NCBI GenBank assembly: GCA_023622515.1 | Contig: JAMNZB010000030.1 | Span: 414 to 64,413, forward strand | From: Bacillota bacterium | GTDB taxonomy: Bacteria; Bacillota; Clostridia; Saccharofermentanales; DTU023 | DNA: 64,000 nt | Direction: 5' to 3' | In this document: positions 1,480-48,854 of the stretch, in pieces | How the letters are laid out: each line of letters opens with the position of its first letter | Numbering within the stretch: the stretch's first letter is position 1 | Made by a program: the position numbers and the translations under genes | Notes under the pieces: model-generated | Seen by the model: the letters and a program-made list of their open reading frames with translations, nothing else | What the model was told of the DNA's origin: nothing | Database searches by the model: none

Positions 1480-1502
1480 AATTATAAGGAGTGAGACAGG
1501 AA

Positions 1503-3608
1503 ATGAAAGACTTTTCTAGAAGTCACTATTGCGGAAGAGTTAGGGAATCAGACAAAAATCATTGGGTCACCACCATGGGCTGGGTACAGACCAGAAGGGA
1601 TATGGGCGGGGTAATTTTCATTGATTTAAGGGACAAGACGGGAGTCCTCCAGCTGGTGTTTGACCAGCAAAATTTTGATGAAATCCGCTTCAAACAAATT
1701 GAACGTTTTCGAGCAGAATATATCATTGCTGTTAGAGGGCCTATTAGAGAACGGGATGCAGAAACCTATAACCCAAAAATTCCAACGGGAACCGTCGAAC
1801 TTGAGGTGAAAGAATTTGAACTTCTTTCCAGAGCTAGAACACTCCCCTTTCCCATAGATGACAAGGTGGAAGTCAGAGAAGATTTGAGGCTGAAATATCG
1901 ATATTTGGACCTCAGGCGGCCAAAAATGTTTCAAAACTTTCTCTTGCGAAACCAAGCGGTAAAGAGCATTCGACATTATTTGGAAGGCCAGGAATTTTTG
2001 GAAGTAGAAACGCCCGTTCTAACCAAGAGTACGCCGGAAGGGGCCAGAGATTATCTGGTGCCCAGCAGAATCCATCCGGGTGAATTCTATGCCCTCCCCC
2101 AATCCCCCCAAGTCTTTAAACAGTTGTTGATGCTGGCCGGTTTTGACCGCTACTACCAAGTAGCCCGCTGCTTTAGGGATGAGGATTTAAGGGCGGACAG
2201 GCAGCCGGAATTTACTCAAATAGACCTGGAGACGTCCTTTTTAAGCAAGGAAGAAATATTAAATATCTTGGAAGACTTGTTCAAAAGAGTCTTTAAAGAT
2301 GTCCTGGATATAGAATTTAAAGACCCTTTCCCCAGAATGACCTACCAGGAGGCTATGGCCTCCTACGCTTCCGACAAACCGGACCTGCGCTTCGGCATGA
2401 AAATAGTCGATGTGACGGAAGAAGTTGAAAACTCCAGCTTTAAGGTCTTTACCGATGCTTTAAAGGCCGGAGGCCGGGTGCGTTCTATCAATATTAAGGG
2501 GGGTAATAATTTAACCAGGACGAAAATCGACAACTTGACCGACAAGGCCATTGCCTACGGGGCAAAGGGGATGGCCTGGATTGGCATAGATGAGAACAGA
2601 AATCTAAGAACTATCTTGACCAAGTATTTTTCTGAGGAAGACATGGAAACCCTTTTGAGAAAAATGGAGGCCGAACCGGATGACTTGCTGATTTTCTGTG
2701 CGGATACCTTAGAGGCCATCTACAAGATTCTTGGACCCTTAAGGCTGGATATCGGAGATATGTTTGGCCTAAGGAAGAAAGATGATTATAAATTTTTAAT
2801 GGTGGTCGACTTCCCCCTCTTTGAATATTCTAAGGAAGAGGGCAGGTATCTGGCCATGCACCACCCTTTTACCATGCCGGTGGCCGAAGATATCGATAAA
2901 ATGGAAAACGATCCCTTGAGTGTCAGGGCCGAATCTTATGACGTGGTATTAAACGGAATTGAATTGGGTTCCGGTTCTTTAAGGATCCACCGCCCGGACA
3001 TTCAAGAAAGCCTGTTTAAAGTGCTTGGTTTTAGTGAAGAAGAAATCGACAAGCGCTTCGGCCACCTGATCCGGGCCTTCCAATACGGGACTCCGCCCCA
3101 TGGCGGCTTCGCTTTCGGTTTAGACCGCTTGGTCATGTTAATGGCCCAAGAAGACAGCATTCGGGAAGTTATCGCCTTCCCTAAGAATAGGGAGGCGGAG
3201 TGCCTCTTAACCAATGCGCCTAGTCCTGTCGACGACCGGCAGCTGCAAGAGCTGAATATTGGAGTCCTTTCAAAAGACGGCAGGGTTGAAGATGCCGCTG
3301 CCGGTGAGAAAAGTGAGTATAAAGAAAGTATCGACATCGAAGCCTATGCCGAAATGGCCATGCTGGCTCTAGATTCCACTTCCCGATTACGTTTTGAGAA
3401 ATATATTAGCGAATTTATCGTTAGGACAAAGGAATTAAGAGGACTGAATCTAGAAGCTCATCAACCCACAATCAACGTCCATCCCATCATAAATTCAACA
3501 AGGCCGGATGAAGTTGTTTCGGACTTGACCAGGGACGAAGTCTTGGCCGGAACGGATAGGACAGAAGAAGGCTATATCCTGGTTCCCAGAATCATTGAAG
3601 AAAATTAG
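1503..3608 (+). CDS. aspS: aspartate--tRNA ligase with a fused C-terminal GatC-like domain
   Basis: Class II AspRS motifs are present (FRDEDLRADRQPEFTQID, GSGSLRIH, GGFAFGLDRLVML). The last ~93 aa (nt ~3327-3605) follow the GatC pattern. I chose ATG 1503 because the AAGGAG at 1486-1491 overlaps the track's GTG 1491. Confidence 0.9.
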   Translation: MKDFSRSHYCGRVRESDKNHWVTTMGWVQTRRDMGGVIFIDLRDKTGVLQLVFDQQNFDEIRFKQIERFRAEYIIAVRGPIRERDAETYNPKIPTGTVELEVKEFELLSRARTLPFPIDDKVEVREDLRLKYRYLDLRRPKMFQNFLLRNQAVKSIRHYLEGQEFLEVETPVLTKSTPEGARDYLVPSRIHPGEFYALPQSPQVFKQLLMLAGFDRYYQVARCFRDEDLRADRQPEFTQIDLETSFLSKEEILNILEDLFKRVFKDVLDIEFKDPFPRMTYQEAMASYASDKPDLRFGMKIVDVTEEVENSSFKVFTDALKAGGRVRSINIKGGNNLTRTKIDNLTDKAIAYGAKGMAWIGIDENRNLRTILTKYFSEEDMETLLRKMEAEPDDLLIFCADTLEAIYKILGPLRLDIGDMFGLRKKDDYKFLMVVDFPLFEYSKEEGRYLAMHHPFTMPVAEDIDKMENDPLSVRAESYDVVLNGIELGSGSLRIHRPDIQESLFKVLGFSEEEIDKRFGHLIRAFQYGTPPHGGFAFGLDRLVMLMAQEDSIREVIAFPKNREAECLLTNAPSPVDDRQLQELNIGVLSKDGRVEDAAAGEKSEYKESIDIEAYAEMAMLALDSTSRLRFEKYISEFIVRTKELRGLNLEAHQPTINVHPIINSTRPDEVVSDLTRDEVLAGTDRTEEGYILVPRIIEEN

Positions 3609-3622
3609 AAAGGGGGGCTCAG

Positions 3623-4804
3623 ATGAACACTAAGCAAAAATATTTGGACTATTTTGATAGGCTGGAAATGGATCAGGAAAAGATGTCAGCCTATAAGACC
3701 CTATGCAAGGATCAGGCTACAGAGGCCTTAGAAAACAACCCGGCACCCTTCCCTGTTGTCTTTTCCGACCTTATCTCTAGCCAAGGAATCCGAACCACAG
3801 CCAATTCCAAGATGCTTGAAAACTACATCCCTCCTTTTGACGCCACCATCGTAGAAAGGGTCAAAAAGGCCGGTGGAATCATTTTAGGCAAGACACTCAC
3901 CCGGGAATTCGGCGTCGGCGAAACAAAAAATCCCTTCGGCACTTGTACTGCCGTAGCCCATGGCGAAGATATTATAGGCTTTTCAACAGGCTATAAGGGG
4001 TCAGTGTATTTTGGTGCACACACATACGGGCTCTTTGCCTATCAGCCAAGCTATGGCCTCGTCTCTCGATACGGCATCATCCCGGTTGCCTCCTCCCTGG
4101 ACAGGCCGGGGATTATAGCCAAAAGCTTTGATAAGCTAGCTCAAGCTATGGCTATAGTAGCCGGAAAAGACGAAAGGGAGGGAAGCACTTTACCCTGTGC
4201 AATCAATTTTTCAAACTTAGAAAAGCTCAACACAAGCGGAATTAGACTGGCCAACATCAGCAGCTTTAAGGACTTTGAAAGAATCGAAGAATTCTTAAAG
4301 AAATTTGATTTATCTGTGGCCAAAGCCCAAGTCAACTCTTTAAAATATGCCTTGCCGGCCTATGAAATCCTCTCTGCCGGGGAATTTGCCAGCAATATGC
4401 AAAGATATGACGGTATCAGCTTTGGCTATCGGGCTGAAGAATATAATAATGTCGAAGAGCTCTACAAGAAGACCAGGACCGAGGGCCTGGGCAAGGCCGT
4501 TCAAGAAAAAATCATCCTGGGAAATTTCCTTTTAAGTAAAGGAAACTACGAGGCCTATTATGTTCAGGCTATGAGAGCCAGGACCATGATTAAGGAAGAG
4601 TTAGAAAAAGTGTTGGCAACACATGAATTTTTCCTTGGTCCGGTCAAGCTTGATTACCTTATTGCCTTGGATTTGGCAGGCCTGCCCGGCCTGTTCATAC
4701 CCTTCGGAAAAGAAGGCTTGCTAATAAGCACCGGGGCCTTTAATGATAAGAGATTATTAGAATTTGGCAAGAAACTGCTTGCCCAAGGGGGAGGTGAGCA
4801 ATAA
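3623..4804 (+). CDS. gatA: GatA-like amidase-family subunit, shortened and with a degenerate catalytic signature
   Basis: 393 aa. Clear GatA homology in ..TTANSKMLENYIPPFDATIVERVKKAGGIILGK.., ..PSYGLVSRYG..ASSLD.., ..RYDGISFGYR..ELY..TR.EG.G..V. The GGSSGGS block is missing. GGGGGG SD upstream. Confidence 0.8.
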   Translation: MNTKQKYLDYFDRLEMDQEKMSAYKTLCKDQATEALENNPAPFPVVFSDLISSQGIRTTANSKMLENYIPPFDATIVERVKKAGGIILGKTLTREFGVGETKNPFGTCTAVAHGEDIIGFSTGYKGSVYFGAHTYGLFAYQPSYGLVSRYGIIPVASSLDRPGIIAKSFDKLAQAMAIVAGKDEREGSTLPCAINFSNLEKLNTSGIRLANISSFKDFERIEEFLKKFDLSVAKAQVNSLKYALPAYEILSAGEFASNMQRYDGISFGYRAEEYNNVEELYKKTRTEGLGKAVQEKIILGNFLLSKGNYEAYYVQAMRARTMIKEELEKVLATHEFFLGPVKLDYLIALDLAGLPGLFIPFGKEGLLISTGAFNDKRLLEFGKKLLAQGGGEQ

Positions 4805-6228
4805 TGGGAAAAAAGTATGAAACCGTTATGGGCTTAGAAGTACACGTGGAACTGAAAACAAAGACAAAGCTCTTCTGCTCTTGTTCCACCAAGTTTGGGC
4901 AAGACCCTAACGTCAATACCTGCCCTGTTTGCCTGGGGCTTCCGGGAGCGACCCCGGTCTTAAATGAAAAAGTTCCGGACCTGGCTGTAAAGGCCGGGCT
5001 GGCTACCCATTGTAAAATCACACGGCTAGGCAAGCAGGATAGGAAGAATTACTTTTATCCCGACTTATCTAAAGGTTTTCAAATTTCCCAGGACGATTAT
5101 CCCATTTGCTACCAAGGCTATCTGGATATCGAGACATCCCGGGGCAAAAAAAGAATAGGAATCACCAGGATGCATATTGAAGAGGATGCGGGAAAACTGG
5201 TTCACGAGGCAGGACTGGGCAGCCTCGTTGACTACAATAGGGCAGGAGTTCCTCTCATAGAAATCGTATCCGAGCCTGATTTGCGATCGGCTGAAGAGGT
5301 TCTGGCCTATTTACGGAAACTAAGGGCCATATTAACCTACACCGGCGTTTCCGATGCCAAAATGAATGAAGGGTCTTTTCGCTGTGATGTAAACCTGTCG
5401 GTCAGGGAGCTGGGCGATGAGACATTTGGCACCCGGGTTGAGATGAAAAACCTAAACTCCTTCCAATCCATTCAGCGGGCCATTGAATATGAGGCAGCCC
5501 GTCAGATTGAAGCCATAGAGGCCGGAGAAAGGATTATCCAAGAAACCAGAGGCTATTCCCAGGACAGCAGAAAAACCTACTCCATGAGGGCCAAAGAAGA
5601 CGCCGCCGACTATCGCTTCATGCCTGAACCGGACCTCATGCCCATCGTCATTACGGAAGAAAAAATAAAAGAGTTGCAGGAGTCTTTGCCGGAATTACCC
5701 GATAGCAGAAAGACCAGGTATATCGAAGAATACGGACTTAGCCACTATGATGCCGAGCAATTGACTTCCTCCATAGAGCTAGCCGGCTTTTTTGAAGAAA
5801 CGCTTGCTTGCGGAACAGATCCTAAGTCTGCGGCCAATCTCATCATTACAGAGCTCTTCCGACTAACCAGCCCGGAAGATTTCCAAGTGCCTGTAAAGCC
5901 GGCAGACTTTGCCCGGCTTATCAGCTTTGTCGAAAATGGCCGGATAAACTTAGGCAGTGCGAAAAAGATTATAGAAATCATTTTTGAACAGCCTGAAAGG
6001 ACACCGGAAGCCATCATCCTGGAAGAGGACTTAGAACAAATCAATGACCGAGACCTCCTGTCGAAAATCATTGATGACGTCCTGAGTCGCAGCGAAAAAG
6101 CCCTTGCCGAGTATAAGGGGGGAAAGAAAAAGGTCCTTCAAGCCATCATTGGTCAGATTATGGGGCAAACGAAGGGCAAGGCCAACCCCCAACTAACCAT
6201 TGCGATATTAAAGGAAAAAATCGGCTAG
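4804..6228 (+). CDS. gatB: Asp-tRNA(Asn)/Glu-tRNA(Gln) amidotransferase subunit B
   Basis: 474 aa with canonical GatB features (GLEVHVEL, CPVCLGLPG, DRKNYFYPDL, C-terminal YqeY-like tail). TAATG overlap with gatA. Confidence 0.95.
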   Translation: MGKKYETVMGLEVHVELKTKTKLFCSCSTKFGQDPNVNTCPVCLGLPGATPVLNEKVPDLAVKAGLATHCKITRLGKQDRKNYFYPDLSKGFQISQDDYPICYQGYLDIETSRGKKRIGITRMHIEEDAGKLVHEAGLGSLVDYNRAGVPLIEIVSEPDLRSAEEVLAYLRKLRAILTYTGVSDAKMNEGSFRCDVNLSVRELGDETFGTRVEMKNLNSFQSIQRAIEYEAARQIEAIEAGERIIQETRGYSQDSRKTYSMRAKEDAADYRFMPEPDLMPIVITEEKIKELQESLPELPDSRKTRYIEEYGLSHYDAEQLTSSIELAGFFEETLACGTDPKSAANLIITELFRLTSPEDFQVPVKPADFARLISFVENGRINLGSAKKIIEIIFEQPERTPEAIILEEDLEQINDRDLLSKIIDDVLSRSEKALAEYKGGKKKVLQAIIGQIMGQTKGKANPQLTIAILKEKIG

Positions 6229-8182: not shown

Positions 8183-8228
8183 TGAATAAAAACAAGTCCG
8201 ATGGAAAGGTTTGACAGTAGTACTTGTT
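8183..8228 (-). terminator. terminator-like hairpin within the long symporter leader
   Basis: On the minus strand AACAAGT..(24 nt)..ACTTGTT is followed by TTTTTATT, about 220 nt upstream of the symporter ATG. Confidence 0.4.
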
Positions 8229-8426
8229 GGATGGCGATGTCTTTCGCACTAGTCTTCTTGCCGGGAAATTTGCTTTCTTGACTTTATAGCTACTATACAC
8301 TTTACAATGAGTTTTATTAATATAGTTACTTAGATTGCTACATTATCATGAAAATTATTAACTCAACAATAGGCATTTTTTTGCAACTGCCCCCTGTTGA
8401 ATTATACGAAAGGAAAGATTTTAAGT

Positions 8427-9620
8427 ATGAAAAAAGAGGATAAGAAATATTCAGACGCATCAGAATTATTGTACTGCGGAAAGACATTCGATTGGATGGA
8501 GATTGAACCGGAGGCAGCCCCGCTCTTTGCCAGTACTGCGTTTGTAATGAGAAATTTTCCTGATGTCCACGAGGCATACAAGCAAGGATACACCTACATA
8601 AGAAAAAATAATCCCAACCGTGATTCATTGGCTTCTCTGGTGAATTATTTGGAAGAGAGCGAAGACACGCTAATCTTTTCATCCGGTATGGGAGCCATCA
8701 CAACCACGGTACTAAGCCTTTTAAAATCAGGCGATCACATTATCTGCAACAGGAATATCTATGGCGAGACCTTCGATTTATTCATGGAACTCTTACCCAA
8801 ATTCGGTATAGAAACTTCTATGGTTGACTTTGATAATCCGGATAATGTGCGCAATGAATTGAAAGCCGAAACAAAGCTCATCTATTCAGAAGTTCTCGCT
8901 AATCCGACGCTGAATATCGCGGATATAGAAGAGCTCGCTAAAATCGCCAAGTCTCAAAATGCCCTGCTTATGATTGATAATACTTTTACCACTCCAATAG
9001 CGATAAAGCCTATCAAACACGGCGCAGATATTGTTATTAACAGTTTAACCAAATTTATGAGCGGTCACAGCGATGCTATAGCCGGCTCAATAAGCGCCTC
9101 AAAAGAGATAACAGATAAAATCAGAACGGTAAGAATGCTGGTCGGAACTTCCGGAGACCCCGTAGCCTCTTGGATGATGTTAAAGGGCATGCAGACGGTT
9201 GACTTGAGACTTAGAAAACAAATGAAAAATGCAGCCATACTGGCCCAGTTTTTTGAAAGTCATAAACACGTCAGTAAAGTGAATCACCCCAGCCTGGAAA
9301 GCTTTGCCCAACATGAACTGGCCTTGAAGATTTTCAGAACTAAAGAAGAGATATCGGGTATGCTCAGTATCATCGTCCCCGAAGACGAAGAGAAAATTAA
9401 TGAATTCATGAAAAAACTCCACTTTGCCCACTATGCCCCGACTTTAGGTGGACTGCGGACCTCTTACCAGCATCCGGTTACTTCCTCTCACAGCCATATG
9501 CCGGACAAGGATAGGCGGAAAATGGGTATAACCCCCGGCATGCTCAGAATATCGGTTGGAATAGAAGATGTTGAAGACCTAATGCAAGATTTCGAACAGG
9601 CCTTGTCTGTTTTTGACTGA
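8427..9620 (+). CDS. Cys/Met-metabolism PLP-dependent enzyme (cystathionine gamma-synthase / methionine gamma-lyase family)
   Basis: Family pattern with the PLP-lysine motif NSLTKFMSGHSD and C-terminal ..LRISVGIEDVEDL... I chose ATG 8427 (GAAAGGAAAG SD) over the track's TTG 8397. Confidence 0.85.
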   Translation: MKKEDKKYSDASELLYCGKTFDWMEIEPEAAPLFASTAFVMRNFPDVHEAYKQGYTYIRKNNPNRDSLASLVNYLEESEDTLIFSSGMGAITTTVLSLLKSGDHIICNRNIYGETFDLFMELLPKFGIETSMVDFDNPDNVRNELKAETKLIYSEVLANPTLNIADIEELAKIAKSQNALLMIDNTFTTPIAIKPIKHGADIVINSLTKFMSGHSDAIAGSISASKEITDKIRTVRMLVGTSGDPVASWMMLKGMQTVDLRLRKQMKNAAILAQFFESHKHVSKVNHPSLESFAQHELALKIFRTKEEISGMLSIIVPEDEEKINEFMKKLHFAHYAPTLGGLRTSYQHPVTSSHSHMPDKDRRKMGITPGMLRISVGIEDVEDLMQDFEQALSVFD

Positions 9621-11026: not shown

Positions 11027-12478
11027 TTAAGGCCGGTTGACCACACCGACAAAGAGGGGGACACCATCGTGACCCTGGACCACAAAAAGGAAGGGCCGGT
11101 CCAGGAAAAAGTCAACCGTTTCCTCCGGCGGCATACCCGCCCCAAGAAGCATGAGTGTGTAGGCGGCTCCGGTAACACCGTCTTCGTCGACCATGACCCG
11201 GGCGGCATGCTTAGCACCGGAAAGGTAGACTTGCGCGTCCTCAGAAGTGGGAGAAAAGTCGGCTGCAGCAGTGAAAACCTTATGGACTCCCAGCTCTTGC
11301 AGGGCCTTCCCCAAGGCTATTTCACTCATGACATCAAATTTAGGCAGTTTGAAATTCACAGTCAGAAACTTTTGCTGCTCATAGGCCAAACAGTCCTCTA
11401 AGAGGGCATCCACTTGGGGGTTAGCCAATAATTCTTCCGGCCGGACACCCTCATCAGGCAGGAAAAACCACATGTTTCCGGCATAGGTCAAGCCTTTACT
11501 TATGGCGGCAAAATTGTCTCCCCAGTAGTAGCTATTGGGACGAGACTCAGACATGAAGCCCGTTTCCACAGGACCGGCAGACGAATGAAAAGTGCCCGGG
11601 GCCGTATCCCTCTTGCTAAATTCACTGTCCCACTTAGCTCGGAAGAGGATGGTAGAGGCCAGGGCCATTAAGCTGTTCTCATCGAAAGCTGCGCTGTCGA
11701 CGCTGGACTCCAAGAGATTATCGGTCTGTTCGTTCAGCCACTCCTGCAGCCGGTCTGTCATGGCCGCACTGCCCATATCCCCTTGGAAAGCAGATGCTTT
11801 GTAAGTGTCTTGCAGAATCTGCAGGGTCTCTTTCTTAATGGAGAGGCCGTGATGAAACCAGACCGAGTTGGCTAGGAGGCTTGTCGTAAAGCCGTCGTTC
11901 ATATAGTGGGCCTGCCAAAGAGAATGGGCCTTGGCCCGCAGCTCCTCAATCGTGTCAACACCGACCACCCCTAAGACTTCTTCCCGTGTAGCACCGGCAG
12001 TCATTTCCGCCAAGAGACTCAGGGCCATGTAGATGTTAAGGGGCGAATAAATGCGGTTTTCCTCATCATCAGCAAGAAGTAGGGGGTTGGCCTCACGGGC
12101 TAGGGCCATAACGCCTTCCTGGTAGCCCTGAGGCTGGTCGCGCAGCCTTCGTACATCAGAGTTCCAGAGCTTATAGGCCTTATTGTAGACCTCGTGGTCC
12201 ACATTTGAACAGCCCAGCAAATCTTCTTCATGGGGATGGTCATGCATAGCAGGGTACTCAGGTGCAGCAAGTGTCTTTACACTTGATGCGGCAACGCCCC
12301 TTGACCAAGCCAGACTCGGAATGAAGAGGACTCCGGTCAGTATGAGGGTCAGAACAACCAGCCCGGCTCCAAGCCTCTGCCGGAAAGAGGGCTTCTTTTT
12401 CCGTCCTAGCGGCCCGGACTCTGTAATGGGCTTGCCATCCGGTTTTCTCATAGCATCTCGTAAGTCTTTAAGTTTCAT
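11027..12478 (-). CDS. serpin (I4 family serine protease inhibitor), N-terminally membrane anchored
   Basis: Serpin core motifs (..YSPLNIYMALSLLAEM.., ..STILFRAKWDSEF.., hinge/RCL ..VDEDGVTGAAYT.., C-terminal ..FLDRPFLFVV....PLFVGVVNRP). TM segment LGAGLVVLTLILTGVLFI near the N-terminus. AAGGAGGG SD. Confidence 0.9.
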   Translation of the reverse strand: MKLKDLRDAMRKPDGKPITESGPLGRKKKPSFRQRLGAGLVVLTLILTGVLFIPSLAWSRGVAASSVKTLAAPEYPAMHDHPHEEDLLGCSNVDHEVYNKAYKLWNSDVRRLRDQPQGYQEGVMALAREANPLLLADDEENRIYSPLNIYMALSLLAEMTAGATREEVLGVVGVDTIEELRAKAHSLWQAHYMNDGFTTSLLANSVWFHHGLSIKKETLQILQDTYKASAFQGDMGSAAMTDRLQEWLNEQTDNLLESSVDSAAFDENSLMALASTILFRAKWDSEFSKRDTAPGTFHSSAGPVETGFMSESRPNSYYWGDNFAAISKGLTYAGNMWFFLPDEGVRPEELLANPQVDALLEDCLAYEQQKFLTVNFKLPKFDVMSEIALGKALQELGVHKVFTAAADFSPTSEDAQVYLSGAKHAARVMVDEDGVTGAAYTLMLLGAGMPPEETVDFFLDRPFLFVVQGHDGVPLFVGVVNRP

Positions 12479-34155: not shown

Positions 34156-35547
34156 TTATTCAGAATCAGCCAGAGCTTCCGGGTCTAAAATTTTGTCTAG
34201 ATCGTCTTCTGTGAAATCGGTTTCGCGGAGGACCACTTCACGGACAGTAGCCTCTTCTTCCATGGCCATCTTAGCGATTTCTGCGGCTTTTGTATAACCG
34301 ATATGGGGGCAAAGGGCTGTGATCATGATTAAACTGTTCTCCAGGAGCTCAGTGATTTTCTTTTCATTTGCGCTGATACCCTCTACACAGTTTACCCGTA
34401 AGGTAAGAGCGGCCTGGCCAAGACTTTCAATAGACTCAAAAAGATTGTAGAAAAGCACCGGTTCAAAAGCATTCAACTCAAATTGACCGCCCTCAGCGCA
34501 CATGGTAATAGTTACATCGTTGCCGATAATATTAAAGGCTACCTGGCTGACAACCTCCGGGATGACGGGGTTAACCTTGCCCGGCATAATAGAGGAACCG
34601 TTTTGACGCGGGGGAAGATTGATGATGGAGTATCCGGCACGAGGCCCTGAAGACATTAGACGCAAGTCATTAGACATTTTAGAAAGGCTGACGGCACAGG
34701 TCTTAATAGCGGCAGAAACCAGAACAAAAGCATCCAGGTTTTGTGTGCCGTCAAAAAGATCGGCAGCGGTTTCCATGGGGTAGCCTACAACTTCACGCAA
34801 GCACTCATTGATAACTTCCATGTATTCCTTGGAGGCATTGATACCTGAACCGATTGCTGTACCGCCCATGTTATTCACATACATGTATTTCTTGACCTCT
34901 TCAATCTGGCCAATGTCCCGCTTTAAGGCCTCGGCATACGCCTTGAAGGACTGGCCGAGTCGCATGGGTACGGCATCCTGTAACTGGGTGTAACCCACTC
35001 GGATAATGTCGTGGAACTCTGCCGCCTTAGCACGCAAGGCCTTTTCTAAATCCTTAAGCTTGGGGAGCATATCATCAATCAGATGGAGAACCGTTAATTT
35101 TCCTGCTGTAGGAAAGACATCATTGGTTGATTGAGACATGTTGACATGGTCATTGGGATGAACCGGGTCATAGGAACCTAACTCGCCGCCTAAAATTTCT
35201 GTTGCCCGGTTGGCAATCACTTCGTTGGCGTTCATGTTTGCTGAGGTACCGGCCCCGCCCTGGATGGGGTCGGTTATGAAATGATCATGGAATTGACCGG
35301 CAATAATTTCCTCACAGGCTTGGATAATAGCCTCACAACGTTTTTCATCAAGTGTCCCGGCTCTTTTATTGGCCTTGGCAGAAGCTTTCTTTACTTTTGC
35401 CAAACTGACAATCATTTCCCTTCTTAATTTTTGGCCGGTAATGGGGAAGTTGTGCTCGGCCCGTTTTGACTGAACACCGTAATATGCCTCAGGCGCAATT
35501 TCCAGCGAACCAACAGTATCTCTTTCAATGCGTTTTCTTGTTTCCAT
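34156..35547 (-). CDS. aspA: aspartate ammonia-lyase
   Basis: Fumarase/aspartase family with the SS loop GSSIMPGKVNPVIPE (aspartase-type PV.PE) and ..TSANMNANEV.., ..SQSTNDVFPT... Confidence 0.88.
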   Translation of the reverse strand: METRKRIERDTVGSLEIAPEAYYGVQSKRAEHNFPITGQKLRREMIVSLAKVKKASAKANKRAGTLDEKRCEAIIQACEEIIAGQFHDHFITDPIQGGAGTSANMNANEVIANRATEILGGELGSYDPVHPNDHVNMSQSTNDVFPTAGKLTVLHLIDDMLPKLKDLEKALRAKAAEFHDIIRVGYTQLQDAVPMRLGQSFKAYAEALKRDIGQIEEVKKYMYVNNMGGTAIGSGINASKEYMEVINECLREVVGYPMETAADLFDGTQNLDAFVLVSAAIKTCAVSLSKMSNDLRLMSSGPRAGYSIINLPPRQNGSSIMPGKVNPVIPEVVSQVAFNIIGNDVTITMCAEGGQFELNAFEPVLFYNLFESIESLGQAALTLRVNCVEGISANEKKITELLENSLIMITALCPHIGYTKAAEIAKMAMEEEATVREVVLRETDFTEDDLDKILDPEALADSE

Positions 35548-35996
35548 TCTTTCAATCTCCTTCTCACATGCCTTGGCATGATTAATAATGCATAATGGTA
35601 TTTGCCTGTATGTAATCTATCTGCATGGCCTAACCGAACTTGCCGGACTTGAAGCAGTTACTTCATTTTGTTTTTTTATCCAACAATTTTGTTTTTTAAA
35701 GATTTTCCCACAATAAGCAGCCTTTTTCATTATGAAGCCCTTTTTTCAGGGGGAAAATTGATTTCACAAACCTTTTCTATTATAGGAAAATGAGGCCCTA
35801 TTTTCAATTCAAATATTCGATATTATAATAAACACTTTAAATAAAGGGAGTCCACTTGAATATTTTGCCGATTTTCCGAAAAGCTACAGAAGATATCGAA
35901 CTATTCTTTCTTCCTGAAGAATAGACCGTTATAATGTTAGCAGAAAATAGAAATTACGCCTTAGGCAACTGGCAAAAGAAAGGCTGGATAAAAATT

Positions 35997-36650
35997 ATGC
36001 GCAATAAAGATTGGATTAATAAGCTGGAAAGGAAATATGGCCGTTATGCTATTCCCGACCTAATGAAATATATCGTCCTTGGCATGGCTATTGTTTATAT
36101 TTTTGACTTTGCCCTGGCCCCGGGTATGCGTCTTAACCTAACTTACAGTCTGGCCTTTATCCGGAATAAGATTTTTGCCGGCCAAATTTGGCGGCTAATC
36201 AGCTTCATCTTTATTCCGCCCCAAGCCAGCCCCCTCTTCATTCTCTTATCCCTCTACTTTTACTGGCTCATCGGCGAAAGCCTTGAACAATACTGGGGCA
36301 GCTTCCGCTTTACCCTCTATTATTTATGTGGAGTCCTAGGTAGCATTGTTGCCGGATTTATCAGCGGCTATGCCACAAACCACTATCTCAACCTGACCCT
36401 CTTTTTCGCCTTTACCGTCCTGAATCCGGAATTTGAAATTCTTCTTTTCTTTGTCCTCCCGGTCAAAATGAAGTGGCTGGGGGCCTTATCCGCTATCAGC
36501 CTCCTCATCTCCTTCTTCGGTACCGGCCTCTCAGGAAAGCTGTCGATTATCGCCGCCCTGGGCAATTTCCTTCTCTTCTTCGGCCAGGACTTTATGGACA
36601 TGGCCAACAATATATACAGGCGCTATAAGTGGAAGAGGGATACAAAGTAA
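35997..36650 (+). CDS. rhomboid-like polytopic membrane protein (catalytic Ser/His not evident)
   Basis: Six predicted TM helices and the rhomboid-like GQIWRLISFIF motif. I chose ATG 35997 because a TATAAT at 35926-35931 overlaps the track start 35934. Confidence 0.55.
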   Translation: MRNKDWINKLERKYGRYAIPDLMKYIVLGMAIVYIFDFALAPGMRLNLTYSLAFIRNKIFAGQIWRLISFIFIPPQASPLFILLSLYFYWLIGESLEQYWGSFRFTLYYLCGVLGSIVAGFISGYATNHYLNLTLFFAFTVLNPEFEILLFFVLPVKMKWLGALSAISLLISFFGTGLSGKLSIIAALGNFLLFFGQDFMDMANNIYRRYKWKRDTK

Positions 36651-47060: not shown

Positions 47061-48425
47061 CTATCTTTTGCGGACGGTTAACAAGAGAGCACCGGCTGCT
47101 ATAAGGATTAAGTTCAGCCCTTGATATGGGCCACTCGCCACCCCTGTTTTCGGCAAGGCCTGAACGGCGTCGGCAGCTGCGGCTACAGGCTTTGTTGTTT
47201 CCGCCGGAACACTTACCGCTAGCGTTTCCACTGGACTCGCTGCTTGCGCTGCTTCCGGAGCTAGCATCAGAATTTTTTGCCAGATGGCTGTAAAGCTATG
47301 GCCGCCAAGAGGTACCACAAACGGATCACCCGGCTGATAGTGCGAACCTTGCCAATGTGAGAACTTATAGCCATCCCGTACGGGGGCCTCAATAATACTG
47401 ATTTGGTCTCCGGCTTTGGCTTTAAGTGTTTTGACGCCGCTTGTATCATCTTGCCATCTGCCGCCTGACGGGTCAAAGGAAATCGTTTCCAGCTTGTCTG
47501 CCGGAGGCGGATTAACAACATAGTTCAGGCTGACTGTTACGTCCATTAGGGTGGAGTCTCTCGGCGGAGCGACCGGATTTGCCGGAAGCCCCTTGGGTTG
47601 ATTACCGGGATTGGGGGGAGCCTGGAGCATCGGGGCTAAAATTGCACCGGAGTCGTACCAATAGACTATTTTCGGTAGATTAACAGCCGGGTCTTGCAAT
47701 ATATTTGGGTCTACAGTCAAAATTCCACTAGCCGCATCATAGTTTGCGCCGGCGGGCAAGTCATTGGCATTTGGGTCTTGGCCATTATAGAGTGGACCGT
47801 ATATATCTTGTTCAGTTACAAATCTAATATTGTCGATATTCACACCCGGGATGGCCTTTAAATCAAACTGATAGCGATTGTTTACAAGGCTAGCTTGTAA
47901 GGGGAGCGGATACTTTTGGCCTCCGAGCATAAGACCATAAAAGTTGCGGTTCAACAGATTAATAGCGGTTAAGTGGTTGGCATGGCAAGCTAGCAACTGT
48001 AGCTGATTGTTCTTTGTCAAGTCCAGGGCAGTTAAGCGGTTGTTATCAATCCAAAGGCTTTGTAGCTGAGTGTTTTGGCTTAGGTTTACGGAAGTCAGTA
48101 AATTGTCACTCACATTCAAATTCTGGAGTTGGGTAAAATGCTCTACCCCTTTAAGGTTGGCAATTTTATCAGGCAAGTAAGCATAGTTTATATCCTGCGC
48201 CACCAATATTTCATTTGCATCTAGGATATCATTCGCATCATTATCAAAGTTGCTCTTCACATACATTTCGAAATTTAGATCAGGGAAGTTGCTTTCATTT
48301 ATCGCCACACCTTGTGGAGGGGGGGCCGCTTCCATGACCGCTACCGGCTGATGGACCCGGAACATAAGTGCCATCAGCAATGTCAGTACAAAAAATACTA
48401 TTTTTTTCTTTCTCTGTCTTAGCAT
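47061..48425 (-). CDS. LPXTG-anchored leucine-rich-repeat surface protein
   Basis: Signal peptide from ATG 48425 (GGGAGGA SD). About 5 LRRs (..LQNLNVSDNLLTSVNLSQNTQLQSLWIDNNRLTALDL..), a Listeria/Bacteroides-type repeat (..GYKFSHWQG..), then LPKTG plus a hydrophobic stretch and RKR. Confidence 0.85.
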   Translation of the reverse strand: MLRQRKKKIVFFVLTLLMALMFRVHQPVAVMEAAPPPQGVAINESNFPDLNFEMYVKSNFDNDANDILDANEILVAQDINYAYLPDKIANLKGVEHFTQLQNLNVSDNLLTSVNLSQNTQLQSLWIDNNRLTALDLTKNNQLQLLACHANHLTAINLLNRNFYGLMLGGQKYPLPLQASLVNNRYQFDLKAIPGVNIDNIRFVTEQDIYGPLYNGQDPNANDLPAGANYDAASGILTVDPNILQDPAVNLPKIVYWYDSGAILAPMLQAPPNPGNQPKGLPANPVAPPRDSTLMDVTVSLNYVVNPPPADKLETISFDPSGGRWQDDTSGVKTLKAKAGDQISIIEAPVRDGYKFSHWQGSHYQPGDPFVVPLGGHSFTAIWQKILMLAPEAAQAASPVETLAVSVPAETTKPVAAAADAVQALPKTGVASGPYQGLNLILIAAGALLLTVRKR

Positions 48426-48854
48426 AAAATAATCCTCCCAAAAAGCTCCTGATAAAGTTTGCTTACACCCATTTACGGAGCAATTAATCACTCTTGGCAA
48501 AGTTCCCGGGAAAACTCTACTTTCCTATACCTTTGCCATGAAAACAACTTCTACTTGTATTCGCACAAGCTTTTTAATATGAACTAGGAACACAGCCAGG
48601 AACATAGCCAGCTAACTTTTATTTTAAAAGGAAATGCTTGCTTTGTAGTGTGTGCATTTCTCACTATTTCTTATTTTTATGTAAGATTTGCCAGCTTAAT
48701 TGCCAATAAGATTGTCTATGCAAATTCAGAGGATTGACTTAATTAAATGAACTTTACGAGAATTCCAAGTCGGACTACGAATCTATTAAAAATTAAGTAA
48801 AATTAAGCCATGGGGAATTTGTTCGCAATCGCTATTCTTTCAAGGCTTTTCATG

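Follow-up and report, generated by a model that had tools for sequence, protein, structure and literature searches.

The tRNA-dependent amidotransferase (AdT) GatCAB is a glutaminase coupled by an ammonia tunnel to a tRNA-dependent kinase/transamidase, and to our knowledge all the described forms of this enzyme (GatCAB, GatFAB and GatDE) possess an amidase or asparaginase subunit that is still active. What is then the role of a GatA subunit that has lost the apparatus of glutamine hydrolysis, yet is maintained beside a canonical GatB? This question is raised by a stretch of 64,000 nucleotides (nt) of contig JAMNZB010000030.1 (GCA_023622515.1), derived from a Bacillota bacterium of the Saccharofermentanales; this whole stretch is hereafter called the window, and all positions are numbered within it. 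In the window, aspS, gatC, a gatA-like gene (referred to as gatA') and gatB are all present on the same strand as one transcription unit, in which gatC is fused to aspS. The comparisons described below, made on sequences and predicted structures, indicate that this aspS::gatC–gatA'–gatB operon probably encodes a hard-wired Asn-transamidosome, in which a pseudo-GatA serves as the scaffold and free ammonia is used in place of glutamine.

The gatA' gene (3623-4804, + strand) encodes a protein of 393 amino acids (aa) with the GatA fold, predicted to be a pseudo-enzyme or scaffold subunit. Its assignment as a GatA-like protein, made in the original prediction from the sequence of the window, is supported by a 158-bit match to Pfam Amidase. 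The product stays, however, below the threshold of the gatA equivalog TIGR00132 (243.7 bits vs the cut-off of 481.1), while the canonical GatA of a Tissierellaceae locus (L024, see below) reaches 608 bits in the same comparison. The correspondence of residues was determined from a HMMER alignment to Staphylococcus aureus GatA (2df4_A), the numbering of which is used here for canonical positions. The catalytic Lys79 is replaced by Ser48 of GatA' within the context VVFSDLI, this position being occupied by Ser, Ala or Asp in the family of GatA' relatives. Two stretches of 9 and 11 residues are absent from GatA', and both GGSSGG and cis-Ser154 fall within these stretches; the Gly/Ser signature GGSSGGS is not present anywhere in GatA'. 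The DTGGSIRQPA motif of canonical GatA is aligned with TGYKGSVYFGA, and about 20 residues including the glutamine-binding Asp425 are missing before LAGLPG. The Lys-to-Ser replacement in FSDLI, the absence of the Gly/Ser block with its cis-Ser, the alteration of DTGGSIRQPA and the C-terminal shortening had all been proposed earlier, and all withstood the alignment. In addition, the N terminus of GatA' is shorter by about 26 plus 13 residues (approximately 39).

One element of the triad behaved differently. The alignment against curated GatA, recommended in the original prediction for the confirmation of triad loss, confirmed the loss of Lys and cis-Ser, but the nucleophile Ser178 is aligned with a serine, S127 of the window GatA'. 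As judged from the alignment, S127 is incidental, because the nucleophile column is not conserved among the relatives (Ser, Ala, Phe, Leu, Asp or Tyr). Among the glutamine-binding residues defined for S. aureus GatA, Tyr309, Arg358 and Asp425 (10.1101/733030), Tyr309 is retained as Y247 (Tyr or His in the family) and Arg358 is replaced by K296, at which Lys is invariant in the family. When the near-invariant columns of canonical GatA were defined as those conserved in at least 90% of 170 canonical GatAs, 37 of the 84 columns were found to be retained in the GatA' family, and the 47 lost columns include the whole catalytic apparatus. By this sequence comparison, the apparatus for glutamine hydrolysis, that is, the triad, the Gly/Ser loop, Arg358 and Asp425, is gone from GatA', in agreement with the proposed loss of the glutaminase half-reaction. 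Because the triad, the oxyanion loop and the glutamine-binding Asp are all missing, GatA' should be unable to act as the known glutaminase.

The remaining protein, nevertheless, appears to be folded and constrained. AlphaFold2 predicted a compact fold for GatA' (pLDDT 91.3, pTM 0.91), and the best Foldseek matches of this model are all GatA subunits, with GatA of the Pseudomonas aeruginosa Asn-transamidosome (4wj3_A) at the top (TM-score 0.91). The GatA' family consists of about 24 clusters at 90% identity in the protein database, with lengths between 387 and 395 aa and with 49-100% identity to the window protein; the mean column identity is 75%, and about 80 positions are invariant. The ratio of nonsynonymous to synonymous substitutions (dN/dS; Nei-Gojobori method, unsaturated genome pairs) was estimated to be 0.13-0.27 for gatA', as compared with 0.05-0.13 for aspS::gatC and 0.04-0.12 for gatB in the same pairs, and the aa identity of relatives to the window is 59-63% for GatA' against 75-80% for AspRS::GatC and GatB. 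The constraint on gatA' is thus relaxed two- to three-fold, yet clearly purifying. The estimate of dN/dS across relatives, which had been proposed for the distinction between a constrained pseudo-enzyme and decay, is in favor of the former, and the suggestion that GatA is kept as a subunit gains support from both the fold and the selection data. As judged from its sequence, GatA' is a pseudo-enzyme by the criteria of homology to an enzyme family, loss of the catalytic residues and purifying selection.

In a search of 1.84 billion cluster representatives, the GatA' family was recovered as a single cluster at 50% identity, followed by many short or partly degenerate GatA-like clusters. Among the best 150 representatives selected by the family profile (P0121-P0269), dozens more GatA-like proteins of 322-500 aa lack one, two or all of the triad residues, some of them possibly as alignment artefacts, and within this set the diversity of degenerate GatA appears to go far beyond that of the 393-aa family.

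The three genes aspS::gatC, gatA' and gatB are co-directional (1491-6228, +), with spacers of 14 nt between aspS::gatC and gatA' and of -1 nt between gatA' and gatB. The TAA stop of gatA' overlaps the ATG of gatB (TAATG), and from this arrangement the two genes are predicted to be translationally coupled. The open reading frame (ORF) of aspS::gatC opens at GTG 1491 in the program-made list, but ATG 1503 is the likely start, because it is preceded by the ribosome-binding site AAGGAG and the alignments with homologues begin at residue 5 of the ORF. The product from this ATG (1503-3608, +) is a 701-aa protein composed of a bacterial-type AspRS with OB, catalytic and GAD domains (NF001750 aspS, 842 bits, residues 8-593) and a full C-terminal GatC. 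This extension of about 110 residues is matched by Pfam GatC at residues 644-698 and by TIGR00135 at residues 614-703 of the 705-aa ORF (3330-3599, +; positions 4-93 of the 93 model positions, 48.1 bits vs the cut-off of 47.1). There is no standalone gatC in the window operon, GatC being present only as the AspRS tail. All of the best 120 database matches of the fusion protein are AspRS::GatC fusions of 680-701 aa, and the name given to such homologues in the database is plain aspartate--tRNA ligase. When the linker and GatC tail of the fusion were used alone as the query, one protein match was obtained. The fusion was overlooked in the original prediction, as were the shortened N terminus of GatA', the monophyly of the module and the Asn-specific T-box of the relatives.

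The third gene, gatB (4804-6228, +), encodes the canonical kinase/transamidase subunit (NF004012, 634 bits), in which 91 of the 103 near-invariant canonical columns are retained, as was expected from its earlier description as fully canonical. The substitutions specific to the GatBs of this module are clustered in the YqeY tail domain, at positions 433-466 of the window GatB (nt about 6100-6200), and the shared changes are S to A, D to E, G to Q, F to A/S, K to G, and N to I. The YqeY tail domain reads the D-loop of tRNA (PMC2811023), and these changes may represent a specialisation on tRNA(Asn).

The function of the operon is indicated by the leaders of its relatives. In 11 loci whose GatA is degenerate, Rfam identified a T-box leader (RF00230; 105-139 bits, gathering score 93) directly upstream of aspS::gatC. 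The specifier is AAC (Asn) in all 11 T-boxes, within the context GAA-N-AAC-purine except for a C after the codon in locus L106. The specifier reads GAAC, in which GAA (Glu) and AAC (Asn) overlap, in several of the T-boxes (noted for L012, L019, L017, L024, L006 and L106), and UAAC or AAAC in others. From these leaders, the operon is predicted to be switched on by uncharged tRNA(Asn) in the T-box-bearing relatives. Because Asn-specifier T-boxes precede the operon in relatives, its product is taken to be Asn-tRNA(Asn), and we regard this as strong sequence evidence that the job of the operon is the supply of Asn-tRNA(Asn).

In the window itself, the leader (1335-1479, +) is aligned with the 3' half of the T-boxes of relatives, and is thus considered to be a relic of the T-box sequence and terminator, beyond which there are a second hairpin (1424-1472) and a T-run (1474-1479). 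In this alignment the T-box sequence of the relatives, TTTGGGTGGTACCGCGAA, corresponds to TTTGGCCGGCACGTTGAA in the window leader, with the motif GGGTGGTACCGCG being mutated to GGCCGGCACGTTG; with CGGC in place of UGGN, the pairing with the tRNA 3' end would be disrupted. The folding z-score of the window leader is -0.87 and not significant. The relic is common to the window and its close relative L023, and the strong hairpin at 1424-1472 with the T-run is additional in the window. A recognisable T-box was not found in L023 nor in the L001 group. In the Tissierellaceae locus L022, a second T-box leader is located directly 3' of gatB (8196-8446 of that locus), where it presumably controls the next gene.

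The module is widely conserved. Related loci were collected from ENA, NCBI, JGI and Logan assemblies, and the genes aspS::gatC–gatA'–gatB were found in the same order in all of the 23 loci first collected (L001-L023, among which are 13 GTDB species representatives) and likewise in those added afterwards. The GatA'-type loci belong without exception to uncultivated Clostridia from digesters, bioreactors and guts, including Saccharofermentanales, Acutalibacteraceae, 'Clostridiaceae', Peptoniphilaceae and Tissierellaceae. The flanks of the module vary from locus to locus, and no fourth conserved gene was detected among the loci examined. By neighbour-joining analysis, all GatBs of the module form one clade (200/200 bootstraps) apart from 28 canonical GatBs, one of which is encoded on a Tissierellia contig that also carries the module. 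Within the module clade, the GatB partners of degenerate GatA are monophyletic (200/200), and the GatBs of fused operons with canonical GatA form the sister group.

These latter operons (L104:6001-10976 and L105:6001-10973), found in a metagenome-assembled genome of [Clostridium] leptum and in the human-gut isolate 'bacterium 210820-DFI.6.52', carry a fused aspS::gatC together with a full-length GatA of 482-483 aa, in which the Lys, GGSSGG and DTGGSIRQPA are all intact; no T-box was detected at the gathering score upstream of either operon. An intermediate state is represented by P0028 (466 aa), which has kept the Lys but not the Gly/Ser loop, and in which Glu occupies the nucleophile position. 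More than in P0028 has been lost in P0026 (438 aa), in P0048 and L106 (414-427 aa), in P0025 (372 aa) and in the window family (393 aa). This series suggests that the fusion took place first, that the glutaminase was lost once later, and that further trimming followed; this order is provisional, because the GatB tree was made by simple neighbour-joining on distances with a small sampling.

From these observations, we infer the non-discrimination of AspRS, the assembly of the complex and the use of ammonia as the donor as follows. The AspRS part would charge tRNA(Asn) with Asp, as proposed solely on the grounds of the GatC fusion and the Asn T-box, and the fused GatC tail would clamp GatA' onto GatB. 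GatA' should retain both its amidase fold and its position within the complex, while the binding and hydrolysis of glutamine would be lost. The amide nitrogen would most likely come from free ammonia or ammonium, which might reach the GatB site through the old GatA pocket and tunnel, opened by the loop deletions. Ammonia is abundant in peptide-fermenting, digester and gut habitats. The window encodes two Opp oligopeptide systems, an M29 aminopeptidase, an aspartate ammonia-lyase and a Na:Ala symporter, and this set of genes is consistent with a peptide fermenter in a high-ammonia environment, in keeping with the amino-acid fermenter assumed in the original prediction. The aspartate ammonia-lyase (34156-35547, -; NF008909, 655 bits, above the cut-off) links aspartate, fumarate and free ammonia. 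A scaffold role of GatA' with free ammonia serving as donor is the most economical reading of the sequence data, because the glutaminase apparatus is gone, yet GatA' appears folded and constrained beside a canonical GatB.

Both parts of this proposal have precedents. Folding and assembly with GatB are known to require GatC and GatA (PMC2330236). Transamidation by AdT with 20 mM NH4Cl bypasses the glutaminase in vitro, and in the case of GatFAB, destabilisation of the GatA site raised the NH4Cl-driven activity (PMC4027206). Several points, however, weigh against the use of free ammonia by a scaffold GatA' in an Asn-transamidosome. The use of NH4Cl by known AdTs is an in-vitro bypass with no demonstrated physiological mode. 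No T-box was detected by Rfam in the window, either by the scan of the whole window or by a permissive scan of the leader (E<=10). The GatA' family carries many invariants of its own, including E248, F255, K296 and N61. In addition, canonical gatCAB and an asparaginase are located directly upstream of the module in two loci, and another protein could thus supply nitrogen in trans.

The last of these points leads to the alternative that GatA' is indeed a scaffold but the nitrogen is provided by a separate enzyme in trans, such as an asparaginase acting as a GatD analogue, the canonical GatA of a second gatCAB, or another glutaminase. In the Tissierellaceae loci L024 (8123-20661) and L106 (1-10821), a canonical gatC–gatA–gatB is located 4.5 kb upstream of the module, and the order of genes is canonical gatCAB, an SDF (Glu/Asp-type) transporter, an unknown 405-410-aa protein, a 323-aa asparaginase, T-box(Asn), aspS::gatC, gatA' and a second gatB. 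The module therefore coexists with a normal AdT in this lineage. For the 323-aa asparaginase among these neighbours, the GatD model gives 204 bits; this score is, however, below the GatD cut-off, and the protein fits an ordinary type II asparaginase better. Moreover, the asparaginase gene lies upstream of the T-box and thus belongs to a separate transcription unit. Neither canonical gatCAB nor an asparaginase was found in the flanks of any other module locus examined, the window included; tblastn did not detect a second gatA, gatB or aspS-like gene within the 64-kb window; and beyond the three genes of the module no neighbour is conserved. A supply of nitrogen in trans is thus unlikely, albeit one that deserves serious consideration. 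The L024/L106 asparaginase was rejected as a general GatD-like partner, as none of the other loci examined carries it. In L024 and L106, the conservation of the asparaginase together with the transporter suggests an island for Asn/Asp salvage.

It is improbable, on the other hand, that GatA' is still an enzyme, in which an active site rebuilt from the family-specific invariants acts on another amide donor or in another reaction. The dN/dS of gatA' well under 1 and the set of about 80 invariants, some of which are new with respect to canonical GatA (E248, F255 and K296; motifs GEFA(S/T)NM and FGVGxTEN), would be expected for such an enzyme. The triad is, however, gone at all three positions, as are the oxyanion Gly/Ser loop and 47 of the 84 canonical columns, and the window protein has Tyr in place of His129, the lone candidate for a general base. 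Furthermore, the sub-clades P0048, P0025, P0026 and P0028 carry different, progressively larger deletions in the same region, a pattern that resembles erosion rather than redesign.

The possibility of a module without any amidating activity, for instance one that sequesters Asp-tRNA(Asn) or plays a regulatory role, with Asn-tRNA(Asn) being produced by AsnRS or canonical GatCAB elsewhere, is more doubtful still. The presence of canonical gatCAB alongside the module in two contigs is compatible with such a role, but the Asn-specifier T-box of 11 loci would induce the operon on uncharged tRNA(Asn), a response that is sensible only if the operon raises Asn-tRNA(Asn), and GatB has kept its canonical columns under strong constraint (dN/dS 0.04-0.12). 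Finally, the decay of gatA' within a redundant second operon, which had been raised as an option in the original prediction and would agree with the two- to three-fold faster evolution of gatA' in aa identity and dN/dS relative to its neighbours, was rejected as hardly conceivable on the selection and conservation data, because the frame is intact, 24 clusters with identities as low as 49% all keep a length of 387-395 aa, dN/dS is 0.13-0.27, the fold is confident, gatA' appears to be translationally coupled to gatB, and the operon is kept in every related locus examined.

The scaffold GatA' with free ammonia serving as donor was then compared with known systems. The Asn-transamidosome, composed of non-discriminating AspRS, GatCAB and tRNA(Asn) (P. 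aeruginosa, 4WJ3; Thermus thermophilus, 3KFU), is alike in its AspRS, GatC, GatA-fold and GatB modules, but differs in that GatC is covalently fused to AspRS in the window system and in that GatA' is devoid of the triad, the Gly/Ser loop and the glutamine-binding residues, so that the known glutaminase half-reaction should not be possible. The aspS–gatCAB operon of Clostridium acetobutylicum, which is under the control of a tRNA(Asn)-dependent T-box with a two-codon GAAC specifier (summarised in PMC4206432 and PMC4052509), likewise includes the whole transamidation pathway in one operon under an Asn T-box, and the overlapping GAAC specifier is shared by several relatives of the window. As far as can be compared through these secondary descriptions, that operon encodes a working GatCAB, whereas the GatA predicted here is catalytically dead, GatC is fused, and the window leader keeps only a relic of the T-box. 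The bifunctional AspRS/GatC of NF009460 (PRK12820) has the same architecture as the window fusion, which aligns with positions 17-684 of the 723 model positions but, at 659.7 bits vs the cut-off of 1379, is not that equivalog.

With respect to the proposed mechanism, the only experimental precedent found is the NH4Cl assay of GatFAB. The yeast mitochondrial GatFAB with an N-truncated GatF has a compromised GatA site and transamidates, even better, with NH4Cl in place of glutamine (PMC4027206), but this is an engineered enzyme assayed in vitro at 20 mM NH4Cl, in which the catalytic residues of GatA are retained. The use of a GatA-like fold as a binding surface or within another complex is also known for Tse8, a toxin of the type VI secretion system proposed to replace GatA on GatB/GatC (10.1101/733030), and for AtzE (6C62); both, however, keep the triad, and neither is a resident subunit of a gatB operon. 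The division of one amidation chemistry into ammonia- and glutamine-dependent forms is exemplified by AsnA and AsnB, although these are unrelated proteins and act on free aspartate rather than tRNA-bound aspartate. Organisms with AsnA make Asn-tRNA in a glutamine-independent manner (PMC2330236).

In the full-text literature, with several key subscription papers outside reach, we found no description of a dead GatA, a natural ammonia-dependent AdT or this AspRS–GatC fusion; that annotators know AspRS–GatC fusions is indicated only by the model name of NF009460 in NCBIfam. The system is a known machine, from which one of two catalytic centres has been removed and in which the subunits have been re-wired. 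The bolder claim, to which we lend slightly less than even confidence, is that this represents the first natural tRNA-dependent amidotransferase to drop glutamine: the tethered AspRS::GatC–pseudoGatA–GatB would make Asn-tRNA(Asn) from ammonium with GatA as a structural lid or tunnel, and the clade would record the stepwise fusion, loss of the Gly/Ser loop, loss of Lys and trimming. If this is the case, the glutaminase would be dispensable in ammonia-rich anaerobic niches, and the structural role of GatA in folding and holding GatB and in forming the tunnel would be separated from its catalytic role. A natural series of intermediates would then be available for the study of tunnel gating, and the AspRS–GatC fusion, as a natural covalent transamidosome, would be useful for structural work. 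The reconstruction of asparagine and nitrogen metabolism would also be changed for abundant digester and gut Clostridia, in which GatA'-type proteins are presently annotated as 'amidase family protein', 'hypothetical protein' or, wrongly, 'GatA'.

A number of other features of the window were also identified. A promoter-like site, TTGATA-17-TATAAT (1200-1228, +), was detected upstream of the operon by a consensus scan, in which 11 of the 12 positions match; this is a consensus match only. Neither the Rfam scan of the whole window nor the permissive scan of the leader detected any RNA family, T-box or other. No Pfam match at E<=1e-5 was obtained for three ORFs, at 471-986 (-, 171 aa), 35934-36650 (+, 238 aa) and 47061-48500 (-, 479 aa), the last of which shows a weak match to an internalin-like leucine-rich repeat in NCBIfam. 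A bacterial serpin of 483 aa is encoded at 11027-12478 (-; Pfam Serpin, 206 bits), and a serpin is also located a few hundred bases downstream of the L023 operon, beside a SpoU methylase.

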